Both the position numbers and the translations under genes were made by a program. Below the pieces are notes generated by a model. It saw only the letters and a list, made by a program, of their open reading frames with translations. It searched no databases and was not told where the DNA came from. From Sedimentisphaerales bacterium (GTDB taxonomy: Bacteria; Planctomycetota; Phycisphaerae; Sedimentisphaerales; Anaerobacaceae), in contig OY970194.1 in NCBI GenBank assembly GCA_963708075.1, forward strand, positions 3,712,001 through 3,776,000: DNA of 64,000 bases. Reading direction: 5' to 3'. Shown piece after piece: positions 522 to 50,414 of the stretch (its first letter is position 1; every line of letters starts with the position of its first letter).

Positions 522-2834
522 ATGGCAGCACGACGGGCACGTACAACGCGCGATATCGTTTGTATTATGATCGTAGTGGTAGGCGGGACCAGCAAGGGAT
601 CGAACGCTGTAGACCGGCCGATCATCGGCTATGACCGGACCGTCCCTCAGGCGGCTTTTGCCGCAGGTGAGATACGGAGGGCCATATTGAGCGTGGGGCG
701 CACGGCCGTTGAGAGAGATCTTGACACCGCGATCGAGGCAGACAGTTCTCTGCGAATCCTGCTGGTCAGTGGTTCGAGTGACAAGGCCGGACGGATCGCC
801 CGTGAGTTTGGCGCGACGACCAAATCCACAGGCTGGCAGGCATATTCCCTCCGATGCAGGAAGGACGGTGACCAGACAACATATGCGGTGCTGGCCACCG
901 ATGCGGATGGGGTAATGTATGGAGGTCTGGACCTGGCCGAGGCGATTCGGCTTGGCATGCTGGCGGGTCTGGGCGACTCGGACCACACGCCCCACATCGA
1001 GCGCCGCGGCATCAAGTTCAACATCCCGCTGGACCTGCGTACGCCCAGCTATTCCGACAGTAGCGACGCCTTTCAACAGAATATCCCCGAGATGTGGAGC
1101 ATGGACTTCTGGCGGGAGTTCCTCGACGAGATGGCCCGGCACCGCTACAACGTCCTGACGCTCTGGAGCCTGCACCCGTTCCCGTCGCTGGTCAAGGTGC
1201 CGGAGTACCCGGACGTGGCGCTCGACGACGTGTGGCGGACCACGATGAAGCTGGACAACAACTTCAGCCACAGCGGCTCGGATATGGTCAAGCCCGAGAT
1301 GCTCGAGCACGTCGAGATCGTCCGGACGATGAGCATCGACGAGAAGATCCAGTTCTGGCGCGACGTAATGCAGCACGCCCGCGACCGGGGCATCGAAGTG
1401 TACCTGTTCACCTGGAACACATTCGTGTGGGGGGCTCAGGGGACCAGGTACGGCATCACAACGGACCTGCACAACCAGACCACGATCGACTACTTCCGTG
1501 CGAGCGTGCGCGAGACGGTCCTGACCTACCCGCTGCTGGCCGGGATGGGCATCACCGCCGGCGAGAACATGCCGAAGCCCTCGGGCGAGTTCTCCAAGGA
1601 GAAATGGCTGTGGCAGACCTACGGCGAGGGCATCCGCGACGCGCTGAAGTTGCAACCCGGCCGCCAGTTCCGCCTGATCCACCGCTTCCACATGACGGGC
1701 CTGGAGGAGGTGCTCAGTGAGTGGAAGGAGTATCCAGGACCCTTCGACTTCTCCTTCAAGTACGCCATCGCGCACATGTACTCCGTGCCGAACCCGCCAT
1801 TTATCAAAGAGGCATTGCCTCACCTGTCGCCGAAATTGCGCACGTGGCTGACCGTCCGCAACGATGACATCTACAGCTTCCGCTGGGGCGACCCCGAGTT
1901 CGCTCGCGCGTTCATTCGGTCTATGCCGGGGCGCGACAAGATGGCGGGTTTCTACGTGGGTCCCGACGGCTACTGCTGGGGCCGCGAGTTCCTCAGCACC
2001 GAGCCTGAGACGCCGCGCCAACTGGTCATGAAAAAGCAGTGGTACAGCTTCATGCTCTGGGGCAGGCTGAGCTACGACCCGAACCTGCCCGATGACCTGT
2101 TCAAACGCACCCTGGCGAAGCGTTTTCCGGAGGTCCCTGCCGATCAACTCTACACGGCCTGGGCCACCGCCTCGAAGATCTTTCCCCAGATCACCCGATT
2201 TCACTGGGGCGACATCGATATCCGCTGGTTCCCCGAGGCCTGCAAGCAGGACCCTGACGATCGCGGCTTCTACACGGTCCGCCACTTTATCGAAGGCCAG
2301 ACCATGCCGGAGAGCGGAATCCTCAACATCCGCCAGTACCGTGAGCAGGTCCTCAATGTAGGGGCGGGTTTCAAACCCGCCCTTGCAACGCCGATCCAGG
2401 TTGCCGAGGCTCTCAAAGGATATGCGGCGAGCACTCTAAAAGCCGTGGTGGAGCTTCGCCCGCACCAAGGTGACAATAAGGAGCTGCGCCTGACCTTAGG
2501 TGACCTGGAGGCCATGTCCCATCTGGGCAACTACTACGGCGAGAAGATTCTCGGCGCCGTGGACCTGGCCCTGTTCGACAGCACCGGGAACCCTGAGCAG
2601 AAGGCGGCCGCCATCCAGCACCTGCAAGCCGCTATGGAACACTGGCGCTTATACAGCGTCGCCTACACCCGCCAGAACAGACAGCCTGTCCTCTACAATC
2701 GCGTGGGCTGGGTGGACATCCCGGGCGCGCTGCTCAAAAAGGTTGAGCAGGACATCCAAATCGCGGAGAGCTGGCAGCCCGGCACGATCAAAGAACCTGT
2801 CGAACGCGGTGCCGACACACCTTTCCATAAATGA
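522..2834 (+). CDS. Large, probably secreted putative glycoside hydrolase-like protein of uncharacterised family; start uncertain (ORF opens at 498)
   Basis: 778-aa ORF; N-terminal GH20/GH67-like zincin-type segment (..GVMYGGLDLAE..) followed by RRGIKFNIPLD and a likely TIM-barrel region. Confidence 0.6.
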   Translation: MAARRARTTRDIVCIMIVVVGGTSKGSNAVDRPIIGYDRTVPQAAFAAGEIRRAILSVGRTAVERDLDTAIEADSSLRILLVSGSSDKAGRIAREFGATTKSTGWQAYSLRCRKDGDQTTYAVLATDADGVMYGGLDLAEAIRLGMLAGLGDSDHTPHIERRGIKFNIPLDLRTPSYSDSSDAFQQNIPEMWSMDFWREFLDEMARHRYNVLTLWSLHPFPSLVKVPEYPDVALDDVWRTTMKLDNNFSHSGSDMVKPEMLEHVEIVRTMSIDEKIQFWRDVMQHARDRGIEVYLFTWNTFVWGAQGTRYGITTDLHNQTTIDYFRASVRETVLTYPLLAGMGITAGENMPKPSGEFSKEKWLWQTYGEGIRDALKLQPGRQFRLIHRFHMTGLEEVLSEWKEYPGPFDFSFKYAIAHMYSVPNPPFIKEALPHLSPKLRTWLTVRNDDIYSFRWGDPEFARAFIRSMPGRDKMAGFYVGPDGYCWGREFLSTEPETPRQLVMKKQWYSFMLWGRLSYDPNLPDDLFKRTLAKRFPEVPADQLYTAWATASKIFPQITRFHWGDIDIRWFPEACKQDPDDRGFYTVRHFIEGQTMPESGILNIRQYREQVLNVGAGFKPALATPIQVAEALKGYAASTLKAVVELRPHQGDNKELRLTLGDLEAMSHLGNYYGEKILGAVDLALFDSTGNPEQKAAAIQHLQAAMEHWRLYSVAYTRQNRQPVLYNRVGWVDIPGALLKKVEQDIQIAESWQPGTIKEPVERGADTPFHK
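2358..2386 (+). repeat. REP-like palindrome family A, in frame inside CDS (peptide VGAGFKPALA)
   Basis: GTAGGGGCGGGTTTCAAACCCGCCCTTGC; four related copies elsewhere in the window. Confidence 0.9.
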
Positions 2835-2898
2835 CGATATACATGCAGGTCGGTACGCTTGCATGATAGGGCTGTGGCAGAGCAAACATGGAATTCGT

Positions 2899-2987
2899 GG
2901 GTGGCAGCGTCAAGCGCAGCTTGGCGATGGTCTTCTCAAGACACTGTACAGCCATCGCCAAGGCCTGCGGCCTTGACGCTGCCACCC
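2899..2987. repeat. 89-bp nested inverted-repeat element, copy 1
   Basis: Outer arms GGGTGGCAGCGTCAAG/CTTGACGCTGCCACCC, inner arms CTTGGCGATGG/CCATCGCCAAG, 21-nt loop; lies between convergent genes. Confidence 0.9.
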
Positions 2988-3025
2988 GCTTCAATCGGCA
3001 CGTTCCTGTCGCACACCGGTCGATG

Positions 3026-4489
3026 TCAGCTCTCAAAATAGACACCTGTTTTGTCGAGAGCATCGCGCAAAGTCGGGTACGGCAGGTCGCGGGTGCCGCA
3101 GTTTCTGGCGGCGCACAGAGCGGCCGCAGTGCCGGCGCCCTGGCCCTGGCCCATGCAGCAGACGGTGTTCCGCGTGGACATGTGGGCCTCGTGGTCCGAC
3201 GTGATCATCATGCCCGCCGCCAGCAGGTTCTCGATCCCTGCGACACGAAGCGCCTTGTAGGGGATGCCGTACGTGCCGCCGTTCTTCACTTGGAGGCGAG
3301 GCGCGGAGTCGTGGAAGCCGTAGATCATGACCTCATCGTCAAAGTGCCTGGCATCGAGCACGTCGGCGAGTGTAATGTCATAATCGCATGCGATGAGCCG
3401 GCCTCGACGGATGCACAGTCTCGGGCTCGTGCGGGCCATGAACGCCTTCTCGCATCCCGGGACATACCGGCGGAACAACTCCACGGCCTTGGCCAAACGC
3501 CGGCGAATCTCCAGCTCGGCCTTGGCCACCTCGTCGCGATTGGTCGGGCTGACGGACATCTTCAGGTTGCACTTGATAAACATGAGATAATTGTCATGCA
3601 CGGTCGTGGTGATCATGCCCATGCCGATGGCACGAGCCCCCTCGGCCAGGCCCGGCACATTGACCCATTCGGCGCCGGCACGGACGATTTGATCGGGCTG
3701 GCCGCTGCGCATGCCCCTGGCCAGTTGTCCAACACCTTTGTTGGCCTTGATGAACTCGTAATACTTATCGATGGACACGTTGCCGATTCCCACGCTGTTG
3801 CACACGGCGTAGTCATTGGGCTCGGTGTATTTGGCCCCGGCGTATGCGGCCAGATCGCCGTAGGCGGTGCAGTCTACGAACGATTTTGCGTAGAACGCTT
3901 CGCGCCCGGAGCGGCTCTCCACGATCACGCCCCGGAGGCGCGGACCATCCATGATCGTGCCGGTCAGCAGTGTGTTGACGCAGACGAACACGCCTGCCTC
4001 CACGAGCATCTCGAACGTCACGAGCTTGTGCAGCTCCGTATCGATGCACGTGCAGACCGAATCGTAGTTGTAGCCCTCGGTCATCTCCGCGTGGCCGGAG
4101 CAGCCGCCCACCTTCATGAGGCGGTCGATGATCTCCTGCGGAACGCCACGCACCACCTGACGCTTCTGAACGCCGGGGAACGCCTTCCAGAGGTTGTAGA
4201 AGCTGTGCAGCGCGGTGCCGCCCTCGGTGACGGTGCCGCCGGGATAACCTTTGGCCTCAATCAGGGCCGTCTTGGCCCCCTGCCGTGCCGCCGCAATCGC
4301 CGCGACAACCCCCGCCGTCCCCGCCCCGGCGACGACGACATCGAACTCCCTGATGGCCAGTCTCCTGGCAGGCTCCTCATAATACTCTCCACTCGGATTC
4401 ACCGCCCCGACCGAAGCACTCTGGAGCACACCAAGGCCTGTCCCAACAGCCAGCATCCCCTTCGAAAACTCACGTCGATTCATGGTCAT
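3026..4489 (-). CDS. FAD-dependent oxidoreductase (FAD_oxidored-type) with Tat-like signal
   Basis: NRREF Tat motif; DVVVAGAGTAGVVAAIAAARQG Rossmann motif; FVDCTAYGDLA; YGIPYKAL..NLLAAG; CMGQGQGAGTAAAL. Confidence 0.88.
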   Translation of the reverse strand: MTMNRREFSKGMLAVGTGLGVLQSASVGAVNPSGEYYEEPARRLAIREFDVVVAGAGTAGVVAAIAAARQGAKTALIEAKGYPGGTVTEGGTALHSFYNLWKAFPGVQKRQVVRGVPQEIIDRLMKVGGCSGHAEMTEGYNYDSVCTCIDTELHKLVTFEMLVEAGVFVCVNTLLTGTIMDGPRLRGVIVESRSGREAFYAKSFVDCTAYGDLAAYAGAKYTEPNDYAVCNSVGIGNVSIDKYYEFIKANKGVGQLARGMRSGQPDQIVRAGAEWVNVPGLAEGARAIGMGMITTTVHDNYLMFIKCNLKMSVSPTNRDEVAKAELEIRRRLAKAVELFRRYVPGCEKAFMARTSPRLCIRRGRLIACDYDITLADVLDARHFDDEVMIYGFHDSAPRLQVKNGGTYGIPYKALRVAGIENLLAAGMMITSDHEAHMSTRNTVCCMGQGQGAGTAAALCAARNCGTRDLPYPTLRDALDKTGVYFES

Positions 4490-4586
4490 TTCCTTTCATA
4501 GGTCCCCCCAAGCATACAGCCTGCCGTCGCCGGATTCAAGAGAGCTATGGACAAGGTGGGACAGATCGGCATATGATTTACCATAT

Positions 4587-4612
4587 TCGAATTTGAGATT
4601 TCGAGATTTCAC
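4587..4612. repeat. Heptamer tandem array (intergenic)
   Basis: ttcgaat-ttgagat-ttcgaga-tttca; a shorter related run occurs at ~5346-5364. Confidence 0.6.
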
Positions 4613-4640
4613 AGACTATGGAAAGGGCAGATGTATGTGT

Positions 4641-5342
4641 ATGACGAGAGTACGAGGGCACATGATGTGGGTTGCAGCTTTTGTAATTGTTGGGGCGACG
4701 ATCTGCACCGCGGGACAGAAGATTCAGCTCTTCGACGGCAAGACCCTGACCGGCTGGTCGGTCCACAGCGGGTTTGCCAAGTACCGCGTCGAGGATGGGT
4801 GCATCGTCGGGACCACCGTCCCCAAGAGTCCCAACAGCTTTCTGTGCACGGATAAGGAATTCGGCGACTTTATCCTCGAATTCGAAGTGAAGCTCGACAA
4901 CCCGGAGCTGAATTCCGGCGTGCAGTTCCGCAGCCAGATCGCACCGACGGAGCTGGCGTTCTGGTTCCGCGATCAGAACGGCAAGCCCTGGCAAAACGTG
5001 ATCCCCAAGGACCGCGTCTACGGCTACCAGGCGGAGATCGCGACAGAGAAAGCGGGCACCTCCGGCGGCATCTACGATGAGGCTCGCCGGGCCTGGATGA
5101 TGGCCGACGTGAAGAGCGACCCCAAGGCCGGCAAGGCGTTCAAGGACGGGCAGTGGAACAAGTACCGCATCGAATGCAAGGGCAGCTCGATCAAGACGTT
5201 CATCAATGACGTGCCCTGCGTCGATTTCAGAGACTCGCTGACGCCCCGCGGCATCATCGGCCTGCAGGTCCACGGCGTAGGCAACACGGCGACGCCCTAC
5301 AGCGTCCGCTGGCGGAATATCCAAATTGACGTGCTGAACTAG
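4641..5342 (+). CDS. DUF1080 / 3-keto-disaccharide hydrolase family protein
   Basis: LFDGKTLTGW, FGDFILEFE, NSGVQFRS, GYQAEI, WNKYRI, GIIGLQVH, VRWRNI; hydrophobic signal; start chosen within ORF 4482..5342. Confidence 0.9.
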   Translation: MTRVRGHMMWVAAFVIVGATICTAGQKIQLFDGKTLTGWSVHSGFAKYRVEDGCIVGTTVPKSPNSFLCTDKEFGDFILEFEVKLDNPELNSGVQFRSQIAPTELAFWFRDQNGKPWQNVIPKDRVYGYQAEIATEKAGTSGGIYDEARRAWMMADVKSDPKAGKAFKDGQWNKYRIECKGSSIKTFINDVPCVDFRDSLTPRGIIGLQVHGVGNTATPYSVRWRNIQIDVLN

Positions 5343-5387
5343 CAGAGAGAATCTGAGATTTGAAGTTGGTGAAAGGGAACCACCCAG

Positions 5388-7652: not shown

Positions 7653-7682
7653 TGCTCCGGCTACGCTGATCTGGTGGATATC

Positions 7683-7776
7683 GGGCGGCAGCGGCAAGCG
7701 GAGTCTTCGGAGCTTGCCGATGGTGCCTCGGCGCAGACACGAGCCATCGGCAAGCTGGCGCTTGCCGCTGCCACCC
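7683..7776. repeat. Nested inverted-repeat element, divergent copy
   Basis: GGGCGGCAGCGGCAAG/CTTGCCGCTGCCACCC outer and CTTGCCGATGG/CCATCGGCAAG inner arms; between convergent genes. Confidence 0.85.
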
Positions 7777-7805
7777 ATCATAATTGATATTCTCTAAGCA
7801 CCATT

Positions 7806-9341
7806 CTATGGTGGGCGGAGACTAGCGGCTTCCGGATCGAACGTGGTCTCCGGCTCGAACGGGAAGATGGGCTTGCGCCGGCGCGTGTACGTCAGTCGCT
7901 CGATACGCATGTCTCCCGCTCCCGGTGTCAGAAGCATGATGTAACGAGGGGCGATGCGGGTCAAGCCGGGGAAGAGATAACCCTCCTTGACGACCACGAT
8001 CTTGTAGGTCAACGGATCGATTCTGCAAGCCTTGAATTGGTCGGGATTGGTGAAGGCCATTGGGCCGTCGGACAGAATCACGTCCACATCACCAACGCGA
8101 ACGACGGCCGTGCCGGAGTCTTTGACTAATCGCACAACCCGTGTTTCCGCCTGCAGCGGCGGCCCGAACTGCTTCTCTACGGTGGCGCCGATAGAAAGAG
8201 GCAAGATCTTGCCCTCGCCCGCTTCGAAGCATTGCCTTGTTGCTCCTGTGTCATTTATGCCCGCGACGAGGGAGTTTTTGATTCTTCGCAGGACAAGATG
8301 ACGCAGAACAATGGGCAGGTCTCCGGGCGTACTGGCCGTGACATTGTCGCCACTGTCAGTCAGGAACACTGTCGATTCCTTCGCCGCCACCGCGCGGGCG
8401 ACGCCCTCCTCCAACTCTGCGGTCTCGCAGCCGAAAGCGAATTCCCGCCGGGCATCCCACACGTTACGGGCCAGATAGACTGCGGCTTCGCGAGCAGCAT
8501 CTTGCGACCCATCGGCCGTAACCATCACCGACATTCCCGTATCCGGTGAATCCGTCCACGCGCAGCCGACGAAAATCGTAGCGGCCAGGATCTTCTCCTC
8601 ATGGCCGGCAATGCCTTCCCGCTCCAGCTTTCTCGCCTCCTCCACGAGGGACCGGAAGGGCTCGGAAGTCGTCATCGCCTTCTCGCCCTGCAGGATCATC
8701 GGAATCGGCAGAACACAGGAGACCGGGAATATCCTGCCCCTGAGGGTATCCAGCAGGATGCTGCCCGCCAATTCAGCGGTTTGCGCACCATCAGTATGCG
8801 GGGCGGTCTTCAGGCCGACGAGGATGTCACCGTACTGCGCCAGCCGGGCAGGGATATTGCCATGCAGGTCGAACGTGCAGGCGATCGGGATGTCAGGCCC
8901 GACAATAGAGCGGACTTCGCCCACAAGGATCGTTTCCGCCGGGCCGATGCCCTCAGCATACATCGCCCCATGGAGCCGTAGGAACACGGCATCGACCGGC
9001 ATCGCCGCCCGCAGCGAATCCACGACCCGATCCATTGCCTCGCGGCAGGCTTTCTCCTCGATGGTCCCGCCGCCCAAGGGATAGGCCGACACACCGGGGA
9101 TAATCTCCAGGTCCGCCCCTTCCCAAGCGGCAAGAGACGGAATGCCCGGCTTCGGAAACGAGAATGCTGTCGTTCTCACCGGGTGGAATGTATTGGTCTC
9201 ATGAGCGAACCCGGCGACGAACACCCGCTTCGTTCGTTTCCCGGCGGGCTCGGCGGCAGACACATGCTTCGACAGAATGGCACCCGTTCCAGCGGCCCCG
9301 ATTGCCATCGCATCACGTAGAAACTCCCTGCGATTTTTCAT
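7806..9341 (-). CDS. M81 family metallopeptidase (MlrC-like) with Tat-like signal
   Basis: AGFAHETNTF, LRLHGAM, TFDLHGN, PHTD, DSGDNVTASTPGD; NRREFL. Confidence 0.9.
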   Translation of the reverse strand: MKNRREFLRDAMAIGAAGTGAILSKHVSAAEPAGKRTKRVFVAGFAHETNTFHPVRTTAFSFPKPGIPSLAAWEGADLEIIPGVSAYPLGGGTIEEKACREAMDRVVDSLRAAMPVDAVFLRLHGAMYAEGIGPAETILVGEVRSIVGPDIPIACTFDLHGNIPARLAQYGDILVGLKTAPHTDGAQTAELAGSILLDTLRGRIFPVSCVLPIPMILQGEKAMTTSEPFRSLVEEARKLEREGIAGHEEKILAATIFVGCAWTDSPDTGMSVMVTADGSQDAAREAAVYLARNVWDARREFAFGCETAELEEGVARAVAAKESTVFLTDSGDNVTASTPGDLPIVLRHLVLRRIKNSLVAGINDTGATRQCFEAGEGKILPLSIGATVEKQFGPPLQAETRVVRLVKDSGTAVVRVGDVDVILSDGPMAFTNPDQFKACRIDPLTYKIVVVKEGYLFPGLTRIAPRYIMLLTPGAGDMRIERLTYTRRRKPIFPFEPETTFDPEAASLRPP

Positions 9342-11878
9342 TATTGCCTCCGATATACAACCGTCGCCACTCCCGGTCTCTCTGCAATAGTTATCAGCAG
9401 TCCGTCGTTCAGAAGTTCGCGGCCGCTGCAGGGGTGGGTTTCAAACCCGCCCTTATCGAAGCTGGTCAGATGGTAGTCAGTGTTCTCGTCTACACCTTTG
9501 AGCCTGAGCCTTGCGGATTCGTAGAAGCTGTTGTGCCGGCGGAAGACCTGGACCATGCCCTCTCCGACCTCCGGGCGGTCGAACTGCCAGGCCATCCATA
9601 CGGTGTCATCTCGCGTCCACGGCGTCAACGGGTAGAAATCGCCATAGTAATTCGTGTTGATCCGTCGCCACTGCTCGATGAACCGACGCAGTGCCGGGTA
9701 ATCGATGTCGCGCACGCGGATGTCGATGCCGAATCCCAGGCTCTGCCCGGCGTTGCTCCAGAGTGCGTATGGCTCGACGGCGGTCTTGCCGCTGCCGTAG
9801 TAGGGCGCGTTTCGCATGCCCACCGTGCCGGTGCCGTGGAACGGCAGCCACAGCGATAGGCCATACATCATGCACTGGTGGCCGATCGCCTCGTAGGCGT
9901 AGTCGCTTCGCCACAGGGGCACAGCGCGGCGCATCGTCTCGATGTCGTTGCGCCGGCCGCCGCTGGCGCACGAGTCGATGAGCATATTCGGATGCCGGCG
10001 GCGAAGCTCATCCCAGTAGGCAAGATAGCCCGTGACGTGCCTGATCTCCGCGATGCCCTGGCGGTCGGGGGCATCGGCCTTGCGCCAGTAGTCCAGCGGG
10101 TCCATGTTGAAATCCTGGCGGTAGAGGTCGATGCCCTGCTCGGTGAGCAGCCGGTCCACGTGCTCGGTTAGCCATTGGCGGGCAGCATCATCGCCGAGGT
10201 TGAGCAGGCCGCCCTTGGCCCCGCCGAGAATCCATTCCGGATGATTGTCCGAGAGCCACGTGCCGGCGGCCACCCGCTCCGGCTCGAACCAAAACAGTGT
10301 CTTGAGGCCCTTGCCGTGCGCGTAATCCGAGACAGCCCGCAGCCCTCGCGGGAACCGGGCCTTGTCCACCTCCCACGTCCCCACGCGGGGCCAGCCGCCG
10401 CCGTGATGCACGTACCAGCCCGCGTCCATCCACCAGTAATCGAGCTTGATCCCCTCCTCCAGGTAGCGATCGATGAACAGGATCTGGCGAGCTTCGTTGG
10501 CGTCGATCATCTCGTTGTACTGGCGGGAGCTGGAGGCCAGCAGTTGCGGCTTGGGCAGTTCGCCGCCGGGCCTGGGCATGGAATGCGCCATCATCCAGCG
10601 GCGCCAGACGTTCTGGGCGGTGATCCAGTCGCCTTTCCAGAACTGCAACACGATCAGCGGGCTGCGGACCTGCTCGCCCGGCAGCAGCTTGAATCGCGTC
10701 AGCTCCTGGCCCGCCTGTACGTGCAGCCCTCGCGCATTGTCGCGCACGAACTGCGCCGCCCATTGCCCGGGCCAGCCAACCGCGACGATCAGCCCCTCGC
10801 CGGACCATTCGAGGTTGAAGTAGGACCAGTCGACATTGGTCGGCCTGCCGCCTGATCCGCCAAGACGCTTGGTGACGTTGCGCCCCAGAGGCGTTTCCAC
10901 TAAGCCGTAGTCATTGCCGTTGGCGGGAGACCCAACATTGTGATGCAGCAGGAACTCGCCCTCAGTGCCACCGGTGAACCCCATATCGAGTGCTTGAATC
11001 TTCTCCAGAACCGGCGAGTCAGCAGAGCCCGTATTCTTGAAGTAGAGTGTCCACTCGACCGTGGGGAAATCCTGGTACTCGACAGCCACGCAGCGAACTT
11101 CAAGACTGCCCGCCGGGTCGATGTACACGAGTGTGTGCTCGGTACGCTGCGAGTCGAGCTTCTGACTCGTGTAATTGGCCTTCCAGGATTTGAGCAACTC
11201 CGTTGACGGCTTACCGTCGTAAACGAACGAAAATGGCGGCTGTGTGAGCGATGGTTTCGCTGCTCCGATCCAGCCAAGCGGCAGGTCCTGGAGCAAGATG
11301 CTCGAGCCGTCCTGGAGTCTCACCGCAGCCTCGGCCCAGAGCGCCTGATCCCAGCCGCGGCCGTCGCCGCCATCCTTCACGCGAATCTCGAATTGCCGGG
11401 CGCCATTCAGTGGAATGTCGATCACACGCGCTGCATCTTTGAGCCGCAGTACGGGCGATGTGAAAACCTCCTTGCCGTCCACAAGTACATGGAACGTCAC
11501 GGAACCATTTCCCATGGCCATCCCGGCCCGGGTGCTGTCGTTATTCTCCAGGCCAACCTCAGCTACGAAGCGTTCCGCAGGCCGGCCGAGGACTACCAGA
11601 AGGTGCTTCGTGGAATTGAACGCCAGGCCGTTCGTGTAGGTCTTGTCACCAATCTGAAACGGCGTCCCGCGCCACGACCGCCCGCGAGATATGCCTTCGG
11701 AGGCGTCCTCATAGAGCAGTTCCAAATGGGGCCGTACCGTCTCCTGTGCCCTGCCGAGCAGCGGGTCAAACCATTCGTTGCGAAGACGAACATCGTCATC
11801 TCTTGGCGTCACCGCTCCAGCCATTGTGGCGATAAACAGACCCACCAACACGCCGGCAAGAACAAATCGATCCTTCAT
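9341..11878 (-). CDS. Alpha-galactosidase (GH36-like) with N-terminal NPCBM/NEW2 domain
   Basis: WWMDAGWY, RFPRGL, WFEPERV, YRQDFN, IDSCASGGRRND, WRSD; NPCBM-like GSVTFHVLVDG..DQALWAEA. Confidence 0.88.
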   Translation of the reverse strand: MKDRFVLAGVLVGLFIATMAGAVTPRDDDVRLRNEWFDPLLGRAQETVRPHLELLYEDASEGISRGRSWRGTPFQIGDKTYTNGLAFNSTKHLLVVLGRPAERFVAEVGLENNDSTRAGMAMGNGSVTFHVLVDGKEVFTSPVLRLKDAARVIDIPLNGARQFEIRVKDGGDGRGWDQALWAEAAVRLQDGSSILLQDLPLGWIGAAKPSLTQPPFSFVYDGKPSTELLKSWKANYTSQKLDSQRTEHTLVYIDPAGSLEVRCVAVEYQDFPTVEWTLYFKNTGSADSPVLEKIQALDMGFTGGTEGEFLLHHNVGSPANGNDYGLVETPLGRNVTKRLGGSGGRPTNVDWSYFNLEWSGEGLIVAVGWPGQWAAQFVRDNARGLHVQAGQELTRFKLLPGEQVRSPLIVLQFWKGDWITAQNVWRRWMMAHSMPRPGGELPKPQLLASSSRQYNEMIDANEARQILFIDRYLEEGIKLDYWWMDAGWYVHHGGGWPRVGTWEVDKARFPRGLRAVSDYAHGKGLKTLFWFEPERVAAGTWLSDNHPEWILGGAKGGLLNLGDDAARQWLTEHVDRLLTEQGIDLYRQDFNMDPLDYWRKADAPDRQGIAEIRHVTGYLAYWDELRRRHPNMLIDSCASGGRRNDIETMRRAVPLWRSDYAYEAIGHQCMMYGLSLWLPFHGTGTVGMRNAPYYGSGKTAVEPYALWSNAGQSLGFGIDIRVRDIDYPALRRFIEQWRRINTNYYGDFYPLTPWTRDDTVWMAWQFDRPEVGEGMVQVFRRHNSFYESARLRLKGVDENTDYHLTSFDKGGFETHPCSGRELLNDGLLITIAERPGVATVVYRRQ
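9428..9456. repeat. REP-like palindrome family A, in frame inside CDS (peptide DKGGFETHPC)
   Basis: GCAGGGGTGGGTTTCAAACCCGCCCTTAT. Confidence 0.88.
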
Positions 11879-11897
11879 CGTTCACATCTCCTTCGCT

Positions 11898-11925
11898 GTG
11901 TCGGCAGGTTCCATCCTGCCGCTAT
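11898..11925. repeat. REP-like hairpin overlapping the TAG stop of the 11922..13367 gene
   Basis: GTGTCGGCAGG-TTCCAT-CCTGCCGCTAT; minus strand begins ATAG-CGGCAGG. Confidence 0.55.
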
Positions 11926-15248: not shown

Positions 15249-15337
15249 GGGTGGCAGCGTCAAAACCGAAGGCCTTGGCGATGGCTCCCTCGCATCAGAG
15301 GAAAACCATCGCCAAGCTGCGCTTGACGCTGCCACCC
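15249..15337. repeat. 89-bp nested inverted-repeat element, copy 2 (opposite orientation to 2899..2987)
   Basis: Near-identical arms to copy 1, largely different 21-nt loop; between divergent genes. Confidence 0.9.
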
Positions 15338-28674: not shown

Positions 28675-30774
28675 TTACCAAATCCAAATGAAAACCACAA
28701 CAACGCATGCCCCGGCGGTGGTCAGGCCCAGGATATAATTGCGGACCCGCCCTGTCTGGCCCTTGCGGGCTATATTTCCGCCGACGAGGGCTGCCCCGGC
28801 GACGCCGTTGACTAAGCCATCGACGCCGCGATTGTCCAGGGTCAGACCGCTGAAGAACGCCGTCCGTGCCACCCAGCGGGCCGAGCCATCGGCCAGACCA
28901 TCCAGAACCACGCGGTCGAACCATTTCCCGAATGCCGCCAGTTGCAGGACGCCGGCGACAAATGTCGCGCGATACAACTCATCAAAATAGAACTTGTTCA
29001 AGAGCAGCTTGTGCACAGGAGCCAAGGTCTGTGCTGCTTTCGCCGGAGAGATCAGCCCCTTGCTATAGGTGAGCCAAGCCAGAATCACGCCGAGGAGCAT
29101 AGCGGCGGTGGCGATGATTGTCGCGGCCGTGTGAAAACCATGTTCCGCATGCGCCGACTCTTCTGCCGAATGAGCGGCCCCGCTCGCCTCAACAGGGTCG
29201 TGCGAGGACGCACGACCTGCTTCCTGCATCTGCCAACTCACCGCCCACGTGGGCTGAGCTTCTGCGATAAGACCAATCAGGCCTCGGCCGCCTTCGTATT
29301 CGTACCGGCCTTCACCAAGCGCATGGCGTTCCGGGGCGCGTCCGAACCAACCGACGCAGATCGACAAGACCGCCAGCACTGCCAAGGGCACCCACATCAC
29401 CCGCGGCGACTCGTGAGCATGCTCGTGAATGTGCTCGTCGCGAGCTGTCGTGCGGAACGTCAGCAGGTACAGCCGCAACATGTAGAATGCTGTGATTGCC
29501 GCCGCCACCGTAGGCAGGGCAAACAGCACCCAGTGGATCCTATGGCTCCAGGCAAAACCAAGAGCGGAGGCCAGGATGGCATCCTTGGAATAAAAGCCGC
29601 TCAGCAGCGGGACGCCGGCGATGGCCAGCGTGCCGACGAGAAACGTGATGCTGGTGTACGGCATCTTCCCGTGCAACTGACCCATCTTGCGGATGTCCTG
29701 CTCCCCGTGGCAGCCGTGAATGACGCTGCCGGACCCGAGAAACAGCAGAGCCTTGAAGCAGGCGTGAGTGATCAGGTGGAACAGCCCCGCCACCCAGCCG
29801 CCGACGCCGAGTGCGAGGATCATGTAGCCCAACTGGCTGATCGTCGAATAGGCCAGGACCCGCTTGATATCGGTCATGACAATGGCGATGAGCGCGCTGC
29901 CGATCAAGGTGATCCCACCGATGTACGCCACGAACAGCAGCGCGGATGGCGTCAGGATGGGAAAGATACGTCCGACCAGGTACACGCCGGCGGCCACCAT
30001 TGTTGCCGCGTGGATCAAGGCGCTGACCGGCGTCGGTCCTTCCATCGCGTCGGGCAGCCAGACGTGCAGGGGGAACTGTGCGCTTTTGCCGATAGCGCCG
30101 AAGAACAGGCAAATCCCCGCGAACGTCAGGAGCGTGCCGTGTCCAGCAAACGCCCCCTGCCGCACCTGATTGAAGACGCCTTCCAGGGTGACCTGGCCCG
30201 TCATGCTCAGCATCGTGGCGATGCCGATGAGGAACAGGAAGTCGCCCACGCGGTTGACGATGAACGCCTTCTTCGCCGCGTTGGAGGCCGAGGTCTTTTC
30301 AAACCAGAACCCGATGAGGAAGTAGCTGCACAGGCCCACCAGTTCCCAGAAAACGAACAGGCCGATCAGGGAGTCGGCCAGGACCAGTCCCAACATGGAG
30401 AAGGCAAAGAGGCACAGGTACGTGAAGAACCGCGGGAAGCGCGGGTCGCCGTGCATGTAGCCGATGCTGTAGATGAAGATGCAACTGGCCACGACGGTGA
30501 CCATCGTGAACATGACGATGGTCAGGCTGTCGATGTGCACGCCGAAGTTGACCACCTGGGTACCGATGGTGAGCCAGCGAACCGAGGCGTTCAGGCTGTC
30601 GGGATGTCCCACGATCCAGCGGATGGAGCAGACCAGCGAGATGGCGGCCGCGGTGAGCATCAGTCCCGCCGCCAAGTAGCCGCTGCGAGGCTCGCCGATG
30701 CGACGGCCCCGAAAGACCAGCGTCACGAAACCCGCCAGGGGCAGCAACCAGGCAATGATGAATGCATACTGCAT
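28675..30774 (-). CDS. nuoL: Complex I-like subunit L
   Basis: KSAQFPLHVWLPDAMEGPTPVSALIHAATMV, HLITHACFKALLFL, GFYSKDAIL. Confidence 0.96.
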   Translation of the reverse strand: MQYAFIIAWLLPLAGFVTLVFRGRRIGEPRSGYLAAGLMLTAAAISLVCSIRWIVGHPDSLNASVRWLTIGTQVVNFGVHIDSLTIVMFTMVTVVASCIFIYSIGYMHGDPRFPRFFTYLCLFAFSMLGLVLADSLIGLFVFWELVGLCSYFLIGFWFEKTSASNAAKKAFIVNRVGDFLFLIGIATMLSMTGQVTLEGVFNQVRQGAFAGHGTLLTFAGICLFFGAIGKSAQFPLHVWLPDAMEGPTPVSALIHAATMVAAGVYLVGRIFPILTPSALLFVAYIGGITLIGSALIAIVMTDIKRVLAYSTISQLGYMILALGVGGWVAGLFHLITHACFKALLFLGSGSVIHGCHGEQDIRKMGQLHGKMPYTSITFLVGTLAIAGVPLLSGFYSKDAILASALGFAWSHRIHWVLFALPTVAAAITAFYMLRLYLLTFRTTARDEHIHEHAHESPRVMWVPLAVLAVLSICVGWFGRAPERHALGEGRYEYEGGRGLIGLIAEAQPTWAVSWQMQEAGRASSHDPVEASGAAHSAEESAHAEHGFHTAATIIATAAMLLGVILAWLTYSKGLISPAKAAQTLAPVHKLLLNKFYFDELYRATFVAGVLQLAAFGKWFDRVVLDGLADGSARWVARTAFFSGLTLDNRGVDGLVNGVAGAALVGGNIARKGQTGRVRNYILGLTTAGACVVVVFIWIW

Positions 30775-36305: not shown

Positions 36306-36372
36306 GATTTACGAATCACCATTTACGATTTAGGATTCAGGCGAAGCCGGCGTGAATGATAATTTGTGAATC
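36306..36372. repeat. Inverted pair of heptamer arrays upstream of nuoI, abutting the stop of the PPC gene
   Basis: gatttac-gaatcac-catttac-gatttag-gattcag ... gtgaatg-ataattt-gtgaatc. Confidence 0.7.
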
Positions 36373-38722
36373 ACGGCACAATTTCGAAGGGAACAGCGGG
36401 CAATACGGCAAGGGCGATCCGAGGCCTGTTGGCCTGCGATTTCTGCTTTTCGGGGGCTGGAGAGCTCACGGGGAAGGCATGGATGATCAGGTTGCCTTTC
36501 AGGCCCACCTTGGCTTTTGCAGCGTCACTGCGCAGCACGATATCCGCGCCCTGGCCGGTACGGGGAGATTTCAAACCCGCCCCAACGACTTTCTCAATCG
36601 TGATCCCTTCCGGCGGCTCGCTCAACTCAAGCTGGACCCTGCCTGTCAGGGCGGTTGCCGGCGCTGCGACTCGCACCCGGACAGTTCCGCCGGCGGGGAT
36701 TCTGATGGGAGTATTGCTGAGGATTTTCACCGGCGCCTTGGTCATGAAGCGTCCTGAGATGGCCACTCGGAGTTCCCTGGCGGGAACGAGATGGCGATAG
36801 AAGAACGCCTGCATCATGTCCTCCGCCGGCACGACCGGATGGACAATCTCACGGCCGTCAATCATGGCACGGCCTTCCAGCGAAACGCTCAACGGCTCCT
36901 GCGTAGGCGTCGGCGGGACCGTCAACGTCACCTGTACCTTATCCTGACCGGACGGCACCCAACTGCCACTTAAGATCACGTCGGCCGGCGCGTCCTTCAA
37001 AGCAAGCGCGATATCGCCGGCGAAACCGTCCTTGCGGAGGGCGTAGACGGTCAGAGGAACACTTGTCCCGCCTCGGACATTGATGCTGGCCGGCACAATT
37101 CGCAACTCAAAGTCCGGTCGCGGCGGTCCTGTGCGCAGGCGGTAGCCATACTCCGCCCCACCTTTGTTCTGGGCGTCAGCCAGGTGAAGATAGTACGTTC
37201 CATCCGCGGGCAACGTGGCACGCAGATAGGAATCGGCGTGGTGCGTGGTCAGCCCGGCCCCTTTGTCCTCCTGGTCGTCACTGGCGGCCAGTTGCCGCCC
37301 GGAGGAATCGGTCAGCTTGAGCATTGAATCCATCGGAGAATTCAGACGGCGAGCATACACTTCCGCCACGATCTCACTGCCGGCATGCCCCTCGAAACTG
37401 AACACATCCCTATCGCCGCCCTTGTCGATGTGCCCGTTGATGATCGCCGGCGTCGTGACCGGCTGAGCCTTCTGCGATTGGTCGTTTGATTCCCGCTCCA
37501 GGCACTCGGGCAGCGTGTCCACGGCGAACGGCACGAGATTGGACACCCATTCATCTCTGCCCACAGAAAGCTGATGGATTCCGACTTCAGCATCTCCAAA
37601 GCCGGGCGTCAGCGTCTTCGTGGGGAGATTCCAGCCCCGCAACTCGATTTCAGTCGGGGTCCCCGCCCGGCCGCCAAGCGGGAAGATACTCGTCACAAAG
37701 GGCAGCTCGCCCACCGTGATACGATAGACAAAATCCTCCCGGCCGCGATAGATGGAGTCCTTGATCTCGATCACGTACTCCCCGTCCGCAGGGATTTCGT
37801 AGAAGAGCACGGGATCAGGATTGAAACGATAGTCGTCGTCGTAGGCCAGCTCTTTCCCGCTATTGTCGTACAGTGCCAGCGTGGCCTGGAACCAGCCGGG
37901 GACAGCATCCGGCATATATGGGATCAATTCGCGAGCGCGGGCGGCGACGACAATCCGCTGGCCCTTTTGCGCCGTGAATCGGAACTGGTCCACACCTCCG
38001 GGCAGAATCTGGCCATTCAGGACGGCCGGCAGTGTGACCTTCATCTCGGTCTTCGCCACTGCGGATTGCACCGCCCTGAAATTCTGTTGCGGTTCAGTGC
38101 TGCCTTGCGATTCTTTTTCGCTGAATTCCGGCAACTCGCCGACGTAGAAGGCCAGCGGGTTTGTCACACCCACCGCCGTCATCAACCTCAGCTCGTGCTG
38201 ACCGGGCCCGGCATCCGGCGCCATTGTCACCGTAAGTGTGACTCTTTCCGCAATCGCCGGATTGGCCTGCCTGTTGGGGCCGTTGAGCAGCTTCTTTCTG
38301 ATCTCCGCGACCATTTTCACATCCTCGGCCGTCCATTGCGGCGGCTTGTTCGGCTCTGTGGAAGAGGGCACGCGGTCCTGTCCTTCGCGCTTGTCATTTA
38401 CCCCTGTGCCCTTCGCCGGACTGCTGCCTTTCATTGCCGCCTGCCTCTTCTCCTGCAGCACCCTCAGCCTCTCCCTCAGATCGTTGAACTCCTTTTGAGT
38501 CAACGGCCTGGTGCGCTCGACCACCACAGCCTGAACGCCAGCGCCGGAGAAACATGCGTCGTGGACGCCGTCAAGGAACTGCCCGCCGACCACGATCTGG
38601 AACGTCGTGCCTCGCTGGCCGCCGGCAGGATAGACGTAACCGATGTGGGGCATGTTCTGCGCGTGTACAACCGTCGCAGTCACGAGAACAGTCGCCATAC
38701 ACAGAATCGCACGCCACAGCAT
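36371..38722 (-). CDS. PPC (pre-peptidase C-terminal-like) domain protein, planctomycete type
   Basis: GYVYPAGGQRGT, repeated NG.I...G.D.F.F, PLGGRAG, YRLR.GPPRPDF. Confidence 0.85.
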   Translation of the reverse strand: MLWRAILCMATVLVTATVVHAQNMPHIGYVYPAGGQRGTTFQIVVGGQFLDGVHDACFSGAGVQAVVVERTRPLTQKEFNDLRERLRVLQEKRQAAMKGSSPAKGTGVNDKREGQDRVPSSTEPNKPPQWTAEDVKMVAEIRKKLLNGPNRQANPAIAERVTLTVTMAPDAGPGQHELRLMTAVGVTNPLAFYVGELPEFSEKESQGSTEPQQNFRAVQSAVAKTEMKVTLPAVLNGQILPGGVDQFRFTAQKGQRIVVAARARELIPYMPDAVPGWFQATLALYDNSGKELAYDDDYRFNPDPVLFYEIPADGEYVIEIKDSIYRGREDFVYRITVGELPFVTSIFPLGGRAGTPTEIELRGWNLPTKTLTPGFGDAEVGIHQLSVGRDEWVSNLVPFAVDTLPECLERESNDQSQKAQPVTTPAIINGHIDKGGDRDVFSFEGHAGSEIVAEVYARRLNSPMDSMLKLTDSSGRQLAASDDQEDKGAGLTTHHADSYLRATLPADGTYYLHLADAQNKGGAEYGYRLRTGPPRPDFELRIVPASINVRGGTSVPLTVYALRKDGFAGDIALALKDAPADVILSGSWVPSGQDKVQVTLTVPPTPTQEPLSVSLEGRAMIDGREIVHPVVPAEDMMQAFFYRHLVPARELRVAISGRFMTKAPVKILSNTPIRIPAGGTVRVRVAAPATALTGRVQLELSEPPEGITIEKVVGAGLKSPRTGQGADIVLRSDAAKAKVGLKGNLIIHAFPVSSPAPEKQKSQANRPRIALAVLPAVPFEIVP
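36558..36586. repeat. Degenerate REP-like palindrome family A, in frame inside CDS (VGAGLKSPRT)
   Basis: Gene strand GTTGGGGCGGGTTTGAAATCTCCCCGTAC. Confidence 0.8.
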
Positions 38723-40090: not shown

Positions 40091-40112
40091 TGCCCTTCTC
40101 CCTTCTTTCGAA

Positions 40113-41705
40113 TCAGTGCCGATAGAGAAATTCCGCGCCGTTGATCAACGCCCAAGCCAGATCCACGAACGCCTCTCGCCCCCTTCCGCCTCCTGACTGA
40201 GGAGCATACGCCGCAATGACTTTCAGCTCTTCTTCTGTCGGATAACGCGAGAGAATCGTCAGGTAGAGTTCATTGACGATCTCGGGCGGCTTACGCCTGG
40301 ATTGCAGTAGGGATTGCAGCTTCGGCCCCTGCTCGACTTTGCGCTGGACGTGACTCGAATTGAGCATGTGCAGCCGTTGGCCGGCTGTGGGACGGCTGTT
40401 CCGCTCCGACTCCAGTCCGGTGTCACGCGGCGGACGCCCGAACAATTCAAGGAAGGAACTCGTGATGCTGCCATCCGCCAGCGCGATCGATCTCTGATCT
40501 TCGGGAATGAAAGTGAACGGTTCAGGAATCGCGCTGGAGTACTTTTCGGTCGTGCCGGTGATCTGGTTGAGCGCATCGATGAGCACCTCCGCCTCCAGCC
40601 GGCGCAGTGGATAGCTCGCGAAATTGGCCGCAGCTTCAGGCTTGTCGCTGCCAGAGATGGAGGAAAGCTGGTATGTCCGCGAGTTCAGAATCAGCCGATA
40701 GATATGCTTCAGGTCGTAGCGGGCGGCGACCAGTTCCTTCTCCAGGAGAGCCAACAGCTCCGGATTGCTCGGCGGATTGTCCGGCCGGATATCGTCCGGC
40801 TCGTGAACGATGCCGCGTCCCAACAGCCAGGACCAGGTGCGATTCACGATATTCCTCGCAAACCAGGGATTGCCCGGAGCCGTCAGCCAATCCACAAAGA
40901 TCACACGCGGGTCCTGCCCCTGTAGAGACGCAAGATCTTGCGTTTCCACTTTGGTTCCATCCGGAAAGATCGCCGCGGAGAGTCCCGAATTTGAGATCTC
41001 AGATTTCGGATTATCCTGATTCGGATCGAAGAAAACGATCTCCTCTTTCCATTCCCCGGTGTACTTGTAGCCGACCTGTGAGAAGAAGACGGCCATGGCC
41101 GACCAGCGATCCTTCGGCCAGCCCTCCGCCCGCACCCCCATAAATGTCAACGCCACGGCCTGTGCCAGGGCCTGCGGCTCCTTGCTCTGAGCGGCTCGGT
41201 AGAAGTTCACCTGAGGCACACGGAAATTGCTGCCGCTGGCCGTCAGCATCTCCCGGACGAACCGGTCATAGGGCATGTCCTCCTTGATGCAGGTTCGAAT
41301 CCAGCGGTGGTAGCCCTGCACGGCGTTGGGCCACAGGTTGATTGGGAACTCCGACTTGACGCGCAGCAGGTCGCTCCACTTCATCGCCCAGTAGTCGGCG
41401 AACTCCTCTCGCTCCAGCAGGCGATCGATCAGGACGCTGCGCTTGTTGGGGTCTTTGTCCGACAGAAAGGCTCTGGCTTCCTGGGCAGTGGGCAGTGTGC
41501 CGATCACGTCCAGGTAAGCCCGTCGGACAAACACGGCATCCGAGCATAGATTGGCGGGCTGAATGCCCAACTGCTCCAACCGGCCGAAAACCAGCTCATC
41601 GATCCGGCCATGGGGCACCGGCGGAGCAGGGTCCTCGTAGGGGCGGGTTTCAAACCCGCCCGCATTGGTCAGCACGAACGCCAGAATCAACAACACCCTT
41701 GCCAT
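40113..41705 (-). CDS. DUF1549/DUF1553 (PSCyt2/PSD1) domain protein
   Basis: FVRRAYLDVIGTLPT, MPYDRFVRE, NPWFARNIVNR.W..LLGRGIV, NPPSNPELL, RRLEAE, FGRPPR, DLAWALIN..EF. Confidence 0.92.
   Translation of the reverse strand: MARVLLILAFVLTNAGGFETRPYEDPAPPVPHGRIDELVFGRLEQLGIQPANLCSDAVFVRRAYLDVIGTLPTAQEARAFLSDKDPNKRSVLIDRLLEREEFADYWAMKWSDLLRVKSEFPINLWPNAVQGYHRWIRTCIKEDMPYDRFVREMLTASGSNFRVPQVNFYRAAQSKEPQALAQAVALTFMGVRAEGWPKDRWSAMAVFFSQVGYKYTGEWKEEIVFFDPNQDNPKSEISNSGLSAAIFPDGTKVETQDLASLQGQDPRVIFVDWLTAPGNPWFARNIVNRTWSWLLGRGIVHEPDDIRPDNPPSNPELLALLEKELVAARYDLKHIYRLILNSRTYQLSSISGSDKPEAAANFASYPLRRLEAEVLIDALNQITGTTEKYSSAIPEPFTFIPEDQRSIALADGSITSSFLELFGRPPRDTGLESERNSRPTAGQRLHMLNSSHVQRKVEQGPKLQSLLQSRRKPPEIVNELYLTILSRYPTEEELKVIAAYAPQSGGGRGREAFVDLAWALINGAEFLYRH
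40922..40949. repeat. GTAG-type REP-like palindrome family C, in frame inside CDS (VETQDLASLQ)
   Basis: GTAGAGACGCAAGATCTTGCGTTTCCAC, near-perfect 28-bp palindrome. Confidence 0.82.
40986..41013. repeat. Heptamer array in frame inside CDS (NPKSEISNS)
   Basis: cgaattt-gagatct-cagattt-cggatta. Confidence 0.78.
41637..41665. repeat. REP-like palindrome family A, in frame inside CDS (NAGGFETRPY)
   Basis: GTAGGGGCGGGTTTCAAACCCGCCCGCAT, directly after the hydrophobic signal segment. Confidence 0.9.
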
Positions 41706-41797: not shown

Positions 41798-41848
41798 AGC
41801 TGCCGGTTCACGGTTCTCAGTCCACTGCCAACTGAGAACTGCCAACTA
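41798..41848. repeat. Inverted pair of heptamer arrays overlapping the stop of the aldo/keto reductase gene
   Basis: agctgcc-ggttcac-ggttctc-agt ... actgcca-actgaga-actgcca-acta; same unit family as 28597..28656. Confidence 0.8.
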
Positions 41849-42808: not shown

Positions 42809-42830
42809 GGAACGATTCCTTTCAAATGGA

Positions 42831-45461: not shown

Positions 45462-45723
45462 AGTCACTCCCCTTGCATTACTCCTGATTGAGTTGAACAG
45501 CGATGATGTCCATAAGGCCGCCTCACGACAGCGTCGAACGTGGCACGCTCGATACACCGATGCCTCATGCTAATCCCCGCAGACAGAAGCGTCAACGATG
45601 TTTCTTGCTGGCCAACTCGTCCGACACACAGTAAGATGGCCCCGGCCCGACAACCGCAGGCACGTAAATCCGAGATTGCCTGCAGCCAGGCCTGGGAACG
45701 GTTCCATACTAAGGAGATACCCA

Positions 45724-46986: not shown

Positions 46987-46996
46987 GGGGCGGGAG

Positions 46997-48022: not shown

Positions 48023-48038
48023 GGGACGTGAGGTCGAT

Positions 48039-49079: not shown

Positions 49080-49082
49080 AAT

Positions 49083-49105
49083 CGGTGGAGCAAGCCCCAC
49101 CCTAC
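49083..49105 (-). repeat. GTAG-type REP-like hairpin family D between convergent genes (possible terminator)
   Basis: Minus strand GTAGGGTGGGGCTTGCTCCACCG. Confidence 0.65.
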
Positions 49106-49108
49106 TAC

Positions 49109-50350
49109 TCACCCTTCCTGGATCGTCATTGCCTCACGGTCGTAGTTCTGGCGCCTGCCGGTTTCGAGGGCCTGGAAGCACATGATGCTCGCAACAGAAT
49201 GTGCATACCCTGCCTCGATGGGCGCGTTCGGCTCCTGGCGGGACCTGATACAGTCGAGCCAGTTGCGCATATGCGCTTCCGTCAGGTCGCCCTGCGGGAC
49301 GGGCGCGACGACGACCGGCTCTTTGAGGGCATCTTTGCCGCCGCCATCGGCGCGGGCTGTCCAGGTCTTGATGTCGAACGTGCCCCGAGTGCCGTAGAAA
49401 ATCACCTCCCCAAACGTCTGGCTATTGCCCAGACGGGTGGAGTAGTTCAGCATGAATTCCTTTGGGTATGTCAGGATGCAATCGACTGTATCGGCGTGCT
49501 CACGTCCATCCTTCCAGACGTACACGCCGCCGAGCGCCACGGCCGAGGCGGGGAGAGGATCATCCATGAACCACGTCGCGACGTCCATCCGATGCACCCC
49601 CAGCAGAGCCGGCGTGCCCAGTGTGAAATCTTTGTACAGGTGCCAGCGACGGAAGCGTTTCGCATCGAAGGCCTGGCGCGGCAGATTCATCAGGAAGCCC
49701 TCCCAGTCCACGTCCTCCTGATGGACATCGCTATAGCCGCGAGCCCATCTCGGGCCGGCATCATGATAGAATGCTTCCACCTCGCTGATTTTGCCCAGGA
49801 TGCCGGACTGAACCAGCTCCGCCGCCTTCTTGTGCCGCAGATCACTGCGAAATTGTGTCCCCACCTGCACGACGGCCTTGTTCTGGCGGGCAAGCTTCAC
49901 GGCCTCCTGGGCATACGTCAACTGCGTAGCCATGGGCTTTTCCACGTACACATCCTTTTTCGCCTTGAGGGCATCCACCAGGATGGGGGCGTGCGCGAAA
50001 TCTGCGGTCGCAATAATCACGGCGTCGATATCGGCTCGCGAAAGGACGTCGCCATGCCGCGAGCACGTGTCCGGAACGGTATTCTGTCGCTTTGCCAAGT
50101 CTGCGAGGGTCCTTTTGATATTGACCTTCCATACATCGCACAGGACCTTGATTTCGAGATCGTGCTCGCCTTTCAATCCCAGGGCGGCTTGCATCAGGGC
50201 GTTGCCCCGACCCCCGCAGCCGATCAGGCCGATGGAGATGCGCTCATTGGCTCCAAAAGCCGTTGCGGGAATCAGGGTCGGCATCGCGACGCTCGCAGCG
50301 CCAACCGCTGCATTCTTGACGAATTCCCGGCGACTGGACTTGCTGTTCAT
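49109..50350 (-). CDS. Gfo/Idh/MocA family oxidoreductase with Tat-like signal
   Basis: SRREFV; IGCGGRG; DVYVEKP; VQVGTQ.RS; GVHRMD. Confidence 0.92.
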   Translation of the reverse strand: MNSKSSRREFVKNAAVGAASVAMPTLIPATAFGANERISIGLIGCGGRGNALMQAALGLKGEHDLEIKVLCDVWKVNIKRTLADLAKRQNTVPDTCSRHGDVLSRADIDAVIIATADFAHAPILVDALKAKKDVYVEKPMATQLTYAQEAVKLARQNKAVVQVGTQFRSDLRHKKAAELVQSGILGKISEVEAFYHDAGPRWARGYSDVHQEDVDWEGFLMNLPRQAFDAKRFRRWHLYKDFTLGTPALLGVHRMDVATWFMDDPLPASAVALGGVYVWKDGREHADTVDCILTYPKEFMLNYSTRLGNSQTFGEVIFYGTRGTFDIKTWTARADGGGKDALKEPVVVAPVPQGDLTEAHMRNWLDCIRSRQEPNAPIEAGYAHSVASIMCFQALETGRRQNYDREAMTIQEG

Positions 50351-50385
50351 ATCGAGTCCTCCCTTCTATGCCCCGGACGATCCAT

Positions 50386-50414
50386 GTACGGGCGGGTTTG
50401 AAACCCGCCCCTAC
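50386..50414 (-). repeat. REP-like palindrome family A, best-conserved copy; its TAG is the stop codon of the lactonase gene
   Basis: Minus strand GTAGGGGCGGGTTTCAAACCCGCCCGTAC; ORF ends ..CCG TAG at 50411. Confidence 0.9.

Follow-up and report, generated by a model that had tools for sequence, protein, structure and literature searches.

The 64,000-nucleotide stretch of DNA examined here (the window) comes from the 7.5-Mb, single-contig genome of a Sedimentisphaerales bacterium (assembly GCA_963708075.1, contig OY970194.1, positions 3,712,001 to 3,776,000) and carries five copies of a GTAG-tagged repetitive extragenic palindrome (REP), referred to as family A, four of which lie in frame inside protein genes. 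The source genome is labeled G000, and the other G, L, and P labels denote genomes, loci, and proteins of relatives. A preliminary description had placed the copies at 2358, 9428, 36558, 41637, and 50386, and all five were recovered by matching to its 29-bp consensus. The copies at 2358..2386 (plus strand), 41637..41665 (plus strand), and 50386..50414 (minus strand, exact consensus) showed 0–2 mismatches, with matches in 0 of 100 shuffled controls, and folded strongly relative to shuffles (z −4.1 to −5.7). Four mismatches each were found in the copies at 9428..9456 (plus strand) and 36558..36586 (minus strand, decayed stem), which a repeat finder grouped with the other three; their folding was weak (z −1.8) and no better than that of shuffles (z 0.33), respectively.

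The copy at 2358 encodes residues 616–625 of a 773-aa protein (513..2834, plus strand). The copy at 9428 is read from the opposite strand as residues 808–817 of a GH36 alpha-galactosidase-like protein (9341..11878, minus strand, 845 aa), and the copy at 36558 encodes residues 713–722 of a PPC-domain protein (36371..38722, minus strand, 783 aa). The copy at 41637 corresponds to residues 14–23, at the end of a hydrophobic N-terminal stretch, of a DUF1549/DUF1553 protein (40113..41705, minus strand, 530 aa). All four proteins occur in a public protein collection with the same starts, where the names of cluster members fit the planctomycete host of the preliminary description, and orthologues were found; together with the long frames, this supports the earlier placement of these copies inside open coding sequences, and the two reading frames named for them were correct. 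The host labels GH36, PPC, and DUF1553 agreed with Pfam, but "putative GH" for the 513..2834 product did not, as this protein had no Pfam match. A lactonase gene takes its stop codon from the TAG of the fifth copy, which is otherwise intergenic; this gene ends at about the same place in six relatives, several of which have other REP-like hairpins there. Two REPs had been overlooked. One is a family C REP at 40920..40949 (minus strand), in frame at residues 253–262 of the DUF1553 gene, which holds two REPs and one heptamer-repeat insert. The other, of a third family, lies at 29195..29220 (minus strand), in frame near residue 519 of nuoL; two close relatives share it, and no empty allele was obtained for it.

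Alleles carrying a REP (filled) were compared with orthologues lacking it (empty). In the 513..2834 gene, the stretch in question is 8 residues long in the empty allele P0024 (88.8% identity) and 11 in the filled allele, and the gain of +3 was also seen against 6/6 distant orthologues; P0025 is a filled allele. The GH36 site showed +2 relative to 57/66 homologues, and a relative at 89% identity carries an undamaged REP with the same junctions. The net change was +7 against 7/7 orthologues at the PPC site, about −1 against 3/5 orthologues at the N-terminal DUF1553 site, which lies in a region of variable length, and +5 against 31/31 for the family C REP in the same gene. The empty alleles agree in length (31/31, 10/10, 5/5, 57/66, and 10/11 by site), some of them at 84–92% protein identity. 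The ~10-aa peptide thus proved to be lineage-specific but not a plain insertion (net +3, +2, +7, and about −1 for the four family A copies). The proposal that an element like the Rickettsia palindromic element (RPE) adds peptide cassettes to these proteins was not supported, because native codons have been lost at the same sites in comparison with the empty alleles.

Beyond the window sites, 14 events were measured using DNA sequence and 4 using protein sequence only, giving 23 single-REP events (16 copies in G000 and 7 in relatives; 3–4 of them fall in a single loop, and some of these may not be independent). Inserts that are composite or paired (L130, L135, L137, L144/L148, the DUF1501 N-terminus, and L083) and the hypervariable L136 stand outside this count. 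For two in-gene sites, no orthologue was found in five genomes, and L137 had one orthologue only. The net gains were −1, −1, 0, 1, 1, 2, 2, 2, 2, 3, 3, 3, 4, 5, 5, 5, 5, 6, 6, 7, 7, 8, and 10 residues (median +3, range −1 to +10), and the element, at 25–29 bases, spans 8–10 codons. In the sharpest case (G000:7152176), a REP of 29 bases occupies the position of 32 native ones, and the sequence on either side is 82–90% identical in seven relatives. One loop of a rhamnosidase-like protein has been struck by different REPs in G000, G005, G007, and G021, and 10 other homologues are empty there. The REP hosts include one MurG-like gene, in which a long-lived frameshifted intermediate would be unlikely. 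The copies at G000:267625 and 6661467 were considered as a shared insertion in paralogues; this was rejected, since they proved to be a second REP family beside the first, in unrelated genes. In a GH127 domain, near residue 606, a decayed family C-like peptide is present in L143, L145, and L146 at the site used in G000, with the same length as in other orthologues, and is possibly an old, fully absorbed replacement.

The ratio of nonsynonymous to synonymous substitution rates (dN/dS) relative to a REP-sharing relative was 0.097 for the 513..2834 gene and 0.135 for the GH36 gene, both of which have a close filled relative; judged from these comparisons, both genes are under purifying selection. 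The GH36 protein was also modeled (mean predicted local distance difference test score [pLDDT] 88.7, 80 sequences in the alignment). In the model, the REP peptide (residues 93–102) stands in for the tip of a hairpin and most of a predicted beta-strand (96–103) in the C-terminal domain. The confidence was lower at the peptide (75 for residues 91–100), and the strand is partly imposed by the model because the alignment is dominated by empty alleles. A second structure model was too poor (mean pLDDT 46) and was not used.

The two ends of family A copies were unequal. GTAG forms the first four bases in 59/74 copies, and the far foot is whole in 21/74 (p 4e-10); at the 2358 and MurG-like sites, the bases in the place of the far foot look native. 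The base before the GTAG foot is a pyrimidine in 484/577 REPs versus a background of 60% for any GTAG.

Genome-wide, a profile scan detected 74 family A copies (1 hit in the reversed control). The family shows the features of a GTAG REP, being a palindrome of 20–40 bases with GTAG at one end that is multicopy, dispersed, and mostly extragenic. Placement was evaluated against genes that we called ourselves (5630, with 79% of the DNA coding). When 14 GTAG-tagged families were scanned under stricter criteria, 720 copies were found: 572 between genes, 36 at the edges of genes, 32 within weak frames, and 80 in well-supported genes. For family A (n = 70), the corresponding numbers were 41, 8, 2, and 19 (27%). 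The contrast drawn in the preliminary description between in-frame copies and normally extragenic REPs was therefore overstated: the family is itself mostly extragenic (19/70 in genes), and intragenic GTAG REPs have been described before (PMC3733652, PMC6006769). The in-gene share of 19/70 is far under the 79% that landing at random would give (p 3e-20) and above that of the other families in raw counts uncorrected for stop-codon content (61/650, p 6e-5). Among 23 family A copies wholly inside called genes, the reading frames were used 13, 5, 3, 1, and 1 times, and stop-bearing frames were avoided.

Family A is a singlet, with a same-family neighbor within 150 bases in 4/74 copies and not the inverted pairs ~100 bases apart that mark paired REPs (REPINs). 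Most copies of families A, B (52 copies), and C (41 copies) stand alone, with 29/163 having a REP of any kind within 150 bases, and 37/163 lie in genes; for three more-often-paired families, 162/269 were paired and 10/269 were in genes (raw counts, uncorrected for stop-codon content). Matches to the family A core occurred in 13/23 genomes of the genus and 1/17 outside it, with 1–14 copies compared with 57 here, mostly in fragmented assemblies. Within G000, family A is clustered at C1:3700000-3980000 (16 copies versus 2.8 expected), where other families are not enriched, and a single 250-kb bin contains 13 copies (corrected p 6e-5), even though the transposase described below is 1.9 Mb away. 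Two paired families of G000 (32 and 24 copies) are in frame at 11 places as inserts of ~20 residues, and their in-gene share exceeds that of family A. Some loops in relatives gather different REP families, pairs, and REP-in-REP stacks (L074, L081, L083, L084, L085, and L091 at the DUF1501 N-terminus; L378-L383; L357), and a fused double-foot element of ~49 bases occurs among them.

A scan of the genome with Pfam Y1_Tnp gave 13 Y1 genes but no family A copies flanking any of them, and it missed the matching transposase gene, which is split by its own REP. An inverted family A pair at G000:1813128 and 1813438 led to the overlooked gene for a REP-associated tyrosine transposase (RAYT, or TnpA-REP) at 1813158–1813760 on the minus strand, 1.9 Mb away. 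The preliminary description had linked the palindrome to such an enzyme and suggested a search for a RAYT gene flanked by it, and both points were borne out. The copy at 1813438 is in frame just after the HUH motif, between HUH and Y, and an inverted copy lies 1 base past the stop codon; no upstream family A copy was found within 600 bases. The gene scored 73.7 bits with NF047646 (cut-off 80; the match is split by the insert) and 32.3 bits with PF01797.

According to the accessible text of Quentin et al. (2018), TnpA-REP subclass 2.4 (RAYT group 4) is defined by its motifs, by double-foot REPs, and by in-frame REPs inside the gene (PMC6006769). In the G000 gene, the HUH motif NH[IFV]H and WQ match, and YIxNNP has E at the first N position; the family A consensus is double-foot, and a REP flanks the gene as it does in the published subclass. 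By its motifs, its double-foot REPs, and the in-frame REP inside the gene, the matching transposase has the marks of TnpA-REP subclass 2.4 (HUH/Y1). Related loci (n = 91; 11 from a genus search, two of them G000's own, and 80 from a GTDB scan) had a GTAG hairpin within 400 bases in 78 cases and family A in 21. A hairpin lay inside the matched stretch in 69/91, counted by position, with the frame read only for the G000 copy. RAYT homologues adjoin a family A REP in G001 and in other phyla, and REPs of families B and C likewise border homologues of this transposase type (L171, L167). Two related Y1 genes of G000, at C1:3707970-3708620 (3.4 kb before the window) and 4659420-4660085, have no nearby GTAG hairpin.

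On balance, we consider it probable that family A is a double-foot REP that is spread by a subclass 2.4 TnpA-REP and lands by replacement, being joined at its GTAG foot and repaired at the other end with loss of target before selection acts; the one-ended join, the repair of the far end, and the selection are the steps that we infer. The HUH enzyme would cut single-stranded DNA and join the GTAG-foot end of the REP-bearing strand to the target, preferably after a pyrimidine. The far end would be closed by host repair rather than by a second precise cut, sometimes aided by a few matching bases, and this repair would delete ~0–35 target bases and often the far REP foot as well. Most in-gene landings would then be purged, and those that are in frame, stop-free, and encode tolerated peptides would survive in genes that stay under purifying selection. 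The REP peptide itself would be functionless and simply tolerated. More tentatively, one-ended overwriting by subclass 2.4 systems may act as a natural site-replacement mutagen that puts a stereotyped peptide of 8–10 residues in the place of 2–11 native ones, even of a beta-strand, with recurrent and independent hits on the same loops in different members of a genus. The filled/empty pairs may then be the first footprints of REP integration to be seen in vivo.

Several observations weigh against landing by replacement. Two of the 23 events (+8 and +10) reach the +8 to +10 expected of clean insertion. At the GH36 site, the filled form of another relative is three codons longer, so that REPs are either trimmed once they have landed or land there more than once. 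Every site measured is an in-gene survivor, and the closest empty alleles are at ~84–92% protein and ~70–90% DNA identity, so the landing event itself is not visible. A DNA-level search for filled/empty pairs (828 REP hits, 54 alignments) gave, among the matches listed, only in-gene or REP-in-REP cases and none that was intergenic. CT precedes the foot in only 13/74 family A copies, and the cut sites published for other TnpA-REP subclasses are CT and CA, as given in the accessible parts of PMC8266576 and PMC3333891.

Junction matching is also weak and confined to one end. The empty site matched the downstream end of the REP at 3.4/9 bases versus 2.6 in shifted controls, a weak excess (p about 0.003; 16 sites, one event each) that protein-level selection or a fuzzy boundary could also give. 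At the upstream end of the same 16 sites, there was no excess (p 0.49), and several sites, e.g., L132, MurG, and GH36-G005b, lack any junction match. No biochemistry of subclass 2.4 enzymes was found in the literature searched, as far as its text was accessible. Finally, the only start of the G000 RAYT gene that has a ribosome-binding site is out of frame with the rest of it, and the gene is therefore broken or misassembled. In the same genome, a 674-aa frame (C1:266718-268742) fuses the C-terminal part of a cytochrome b with a multiheme cytochrome, which are separate genes in relatives; this suggests an assembly indel error and bears on the out-of-frame start.

The same footprints could have arisen if the REP, or an inverted pair that later collapsed to a double foot, had inserted cleanly and neighboring native codons had then been lost under selection. 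A collapse of inverted pairs to single long palindromes has been proposed (accessible portions of PMC6006769 and PMC3116915), and 29 bases, not being a multiple of 3, would favor frame-restoring deletions. The two nearly clean events and the 3-codon difference between the GH36 filled alleles also fit. However, a second event would be needed at 21/23 sites, nearly always one that deletes native DNA and spares the hairpin core, and native losses reach 11 codons where length is otherwise constant. Close filled relatives share junctions, and a longer intermediate was seen only at GH36. We regard insertion followed by deletion as unlikely.

Less likely again is conversion driven by homology, in which short REP single strands would anneal to look-alike sequences at the replication fork and be copied in as in oligonucleotide recombineering, with no transposase cut at the target. 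Look-alike targets do occur. The GH36 site is striking, with 5.9/9 bases matching at one end; in L210 compared with L175, a family C REP interrupts another REP in its middle, and 8/10 bases match at one end; and in L135, one REP family replaces part of another. REPs also stack on each other and on gene ends. However, the upstream end showed no overall excess, the three sites named above lack a match, and there was no leading/lagging strand bias (30 versus 44 for family A, 367 versus 353 for all families). Conversion alone would also account for neither the pyrimidine bias nor the precision of the GTAG end. That in-gene copies are kept for a function, as an RNA hairpin tuning transcription or translation or as a useful peptide, is very improbable: one protein's loop was struck 3–4 times by different REPs (G000, G005, G007, and G021) and copies persist across relatives at 86–95% identity, but in-gene copies erode in their DNA sequence (9428, 36558, P0061, and P0082), they are read in different frames in unrelated genes, and the repeated strikes fit a tolerant or attractive site equally well.

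Since subclass 2.4 and in-frame intragenic REPs have already been published (PMC6006769, PMC3733652), family A is an element of a known kind. In the accessible text of Di Nocera et al. (2013), in-frame GTAG REPs are reported in unrelated genes, most of them in Opitutus terrae, a member of the Planctomycetes-Verrucomicrobia-Chlamydiae group (PMC3733652). Those REPs resemble family A in lying in frame in unrelated genes, in supplying TAG stops from their feet, and in being mostly extragenic. They are treated there as loop or linker insertions, whereas here the peptide replaces native residues, in one model a beta-strand. A term search of supplement file 3 of that article for the reverse-frame peptide of family A gave 0 hits.

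RPEs share with family A the presence of palindromic DNA in frame in working genes. On the partial text of the same source (PMC3733652), however, RPE-4 and RPE-6 are CGTC-tagged without a dedicated transposase and RPE-1 is longer, whereas family A is GTAG-tagged, 25–29 bases long, and has a matching RAYT. Furthermore, an RPE adds its peptide to the protein, whereas little net length is added here (at least 8 residues in 2/23 events, median +3). In REPINs, or bacterial interspersed mosaic elements (BIMEs), of RAYT groups 2 and 3, mobility is ascribed to the inverted pair, singlets are regarded as dead remnants, and nearly all copies are extragenic, and REPINs are linked only to these two groups, as stated in the accessible parts of the sources (PMC3116915, PMC3333891, and bioRxiv 10.1101/2021.07.10.451892 for the former; the last for the latter). 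They share with family A the GTAG foot, an HUH transposase, and, in the passages available, a proposed single-stranded cut-and-join chemistry. Unlike them, family A is a well-conserved singlet with 27% of its copies in genes.

The overwrite-type footprint of this known element is apparently undescribed. The subclass 2.4 article speaks of REPs "inserted" in the transposase gene and cites insertions in other genes, and its accessible text contains no filled/empty comparison or target loss (PMC6006769). Neither was found for REPs in the accessible literature, including PMC3686654, although supplements and subscription papers could hold one; PMC11708052, in its available part, concerns large deletions linked to insertion sequences. 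How REPs reach new sites is a stated open question (PMC8266576, accessible text). Only for in-gene copies can orthologues give a reliable view of the empty site, and these copies show target loss and unequal ends, a clue to how such repeats spread and a direct prediction for an assay of a subclass 2.4 enzyme. The replacements also suggest that repeat-derived peptides can take the place of structured segments, beyond lengthening loops, which affects how indels are read in alignments and phylogenies.

Other repeats were also noted in and around these genes. In assembled contigs (four runs) compared with window positions 1–14000, no joint or indel was seen at the two REP sites among the matches listed; a 239-base soil contig covers 9216–9454 with 1 difference and represents the filled allele. 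The heptamer-like tract of the DUF1553 gene (40983–41012) is in frame, the same loop in some relatives has similar tracts of different lengths, and tracts of this kind also lie between genes at 12453, 36304, 42756, and 58290. A repeat of ~90 bases with inverted copies (2899–2987, 7682–7776, and 15249–15337) resembles a miniature inverted-repeat transposable element, is not GTAG-tagged, and is very deep in the contigs of three of these runs. The gene at 42831–45461 contains four 48-base repeats at 44258–44857, spaced 159–234 bases apart, which we take to be coding repeats of the beta-propeller type.

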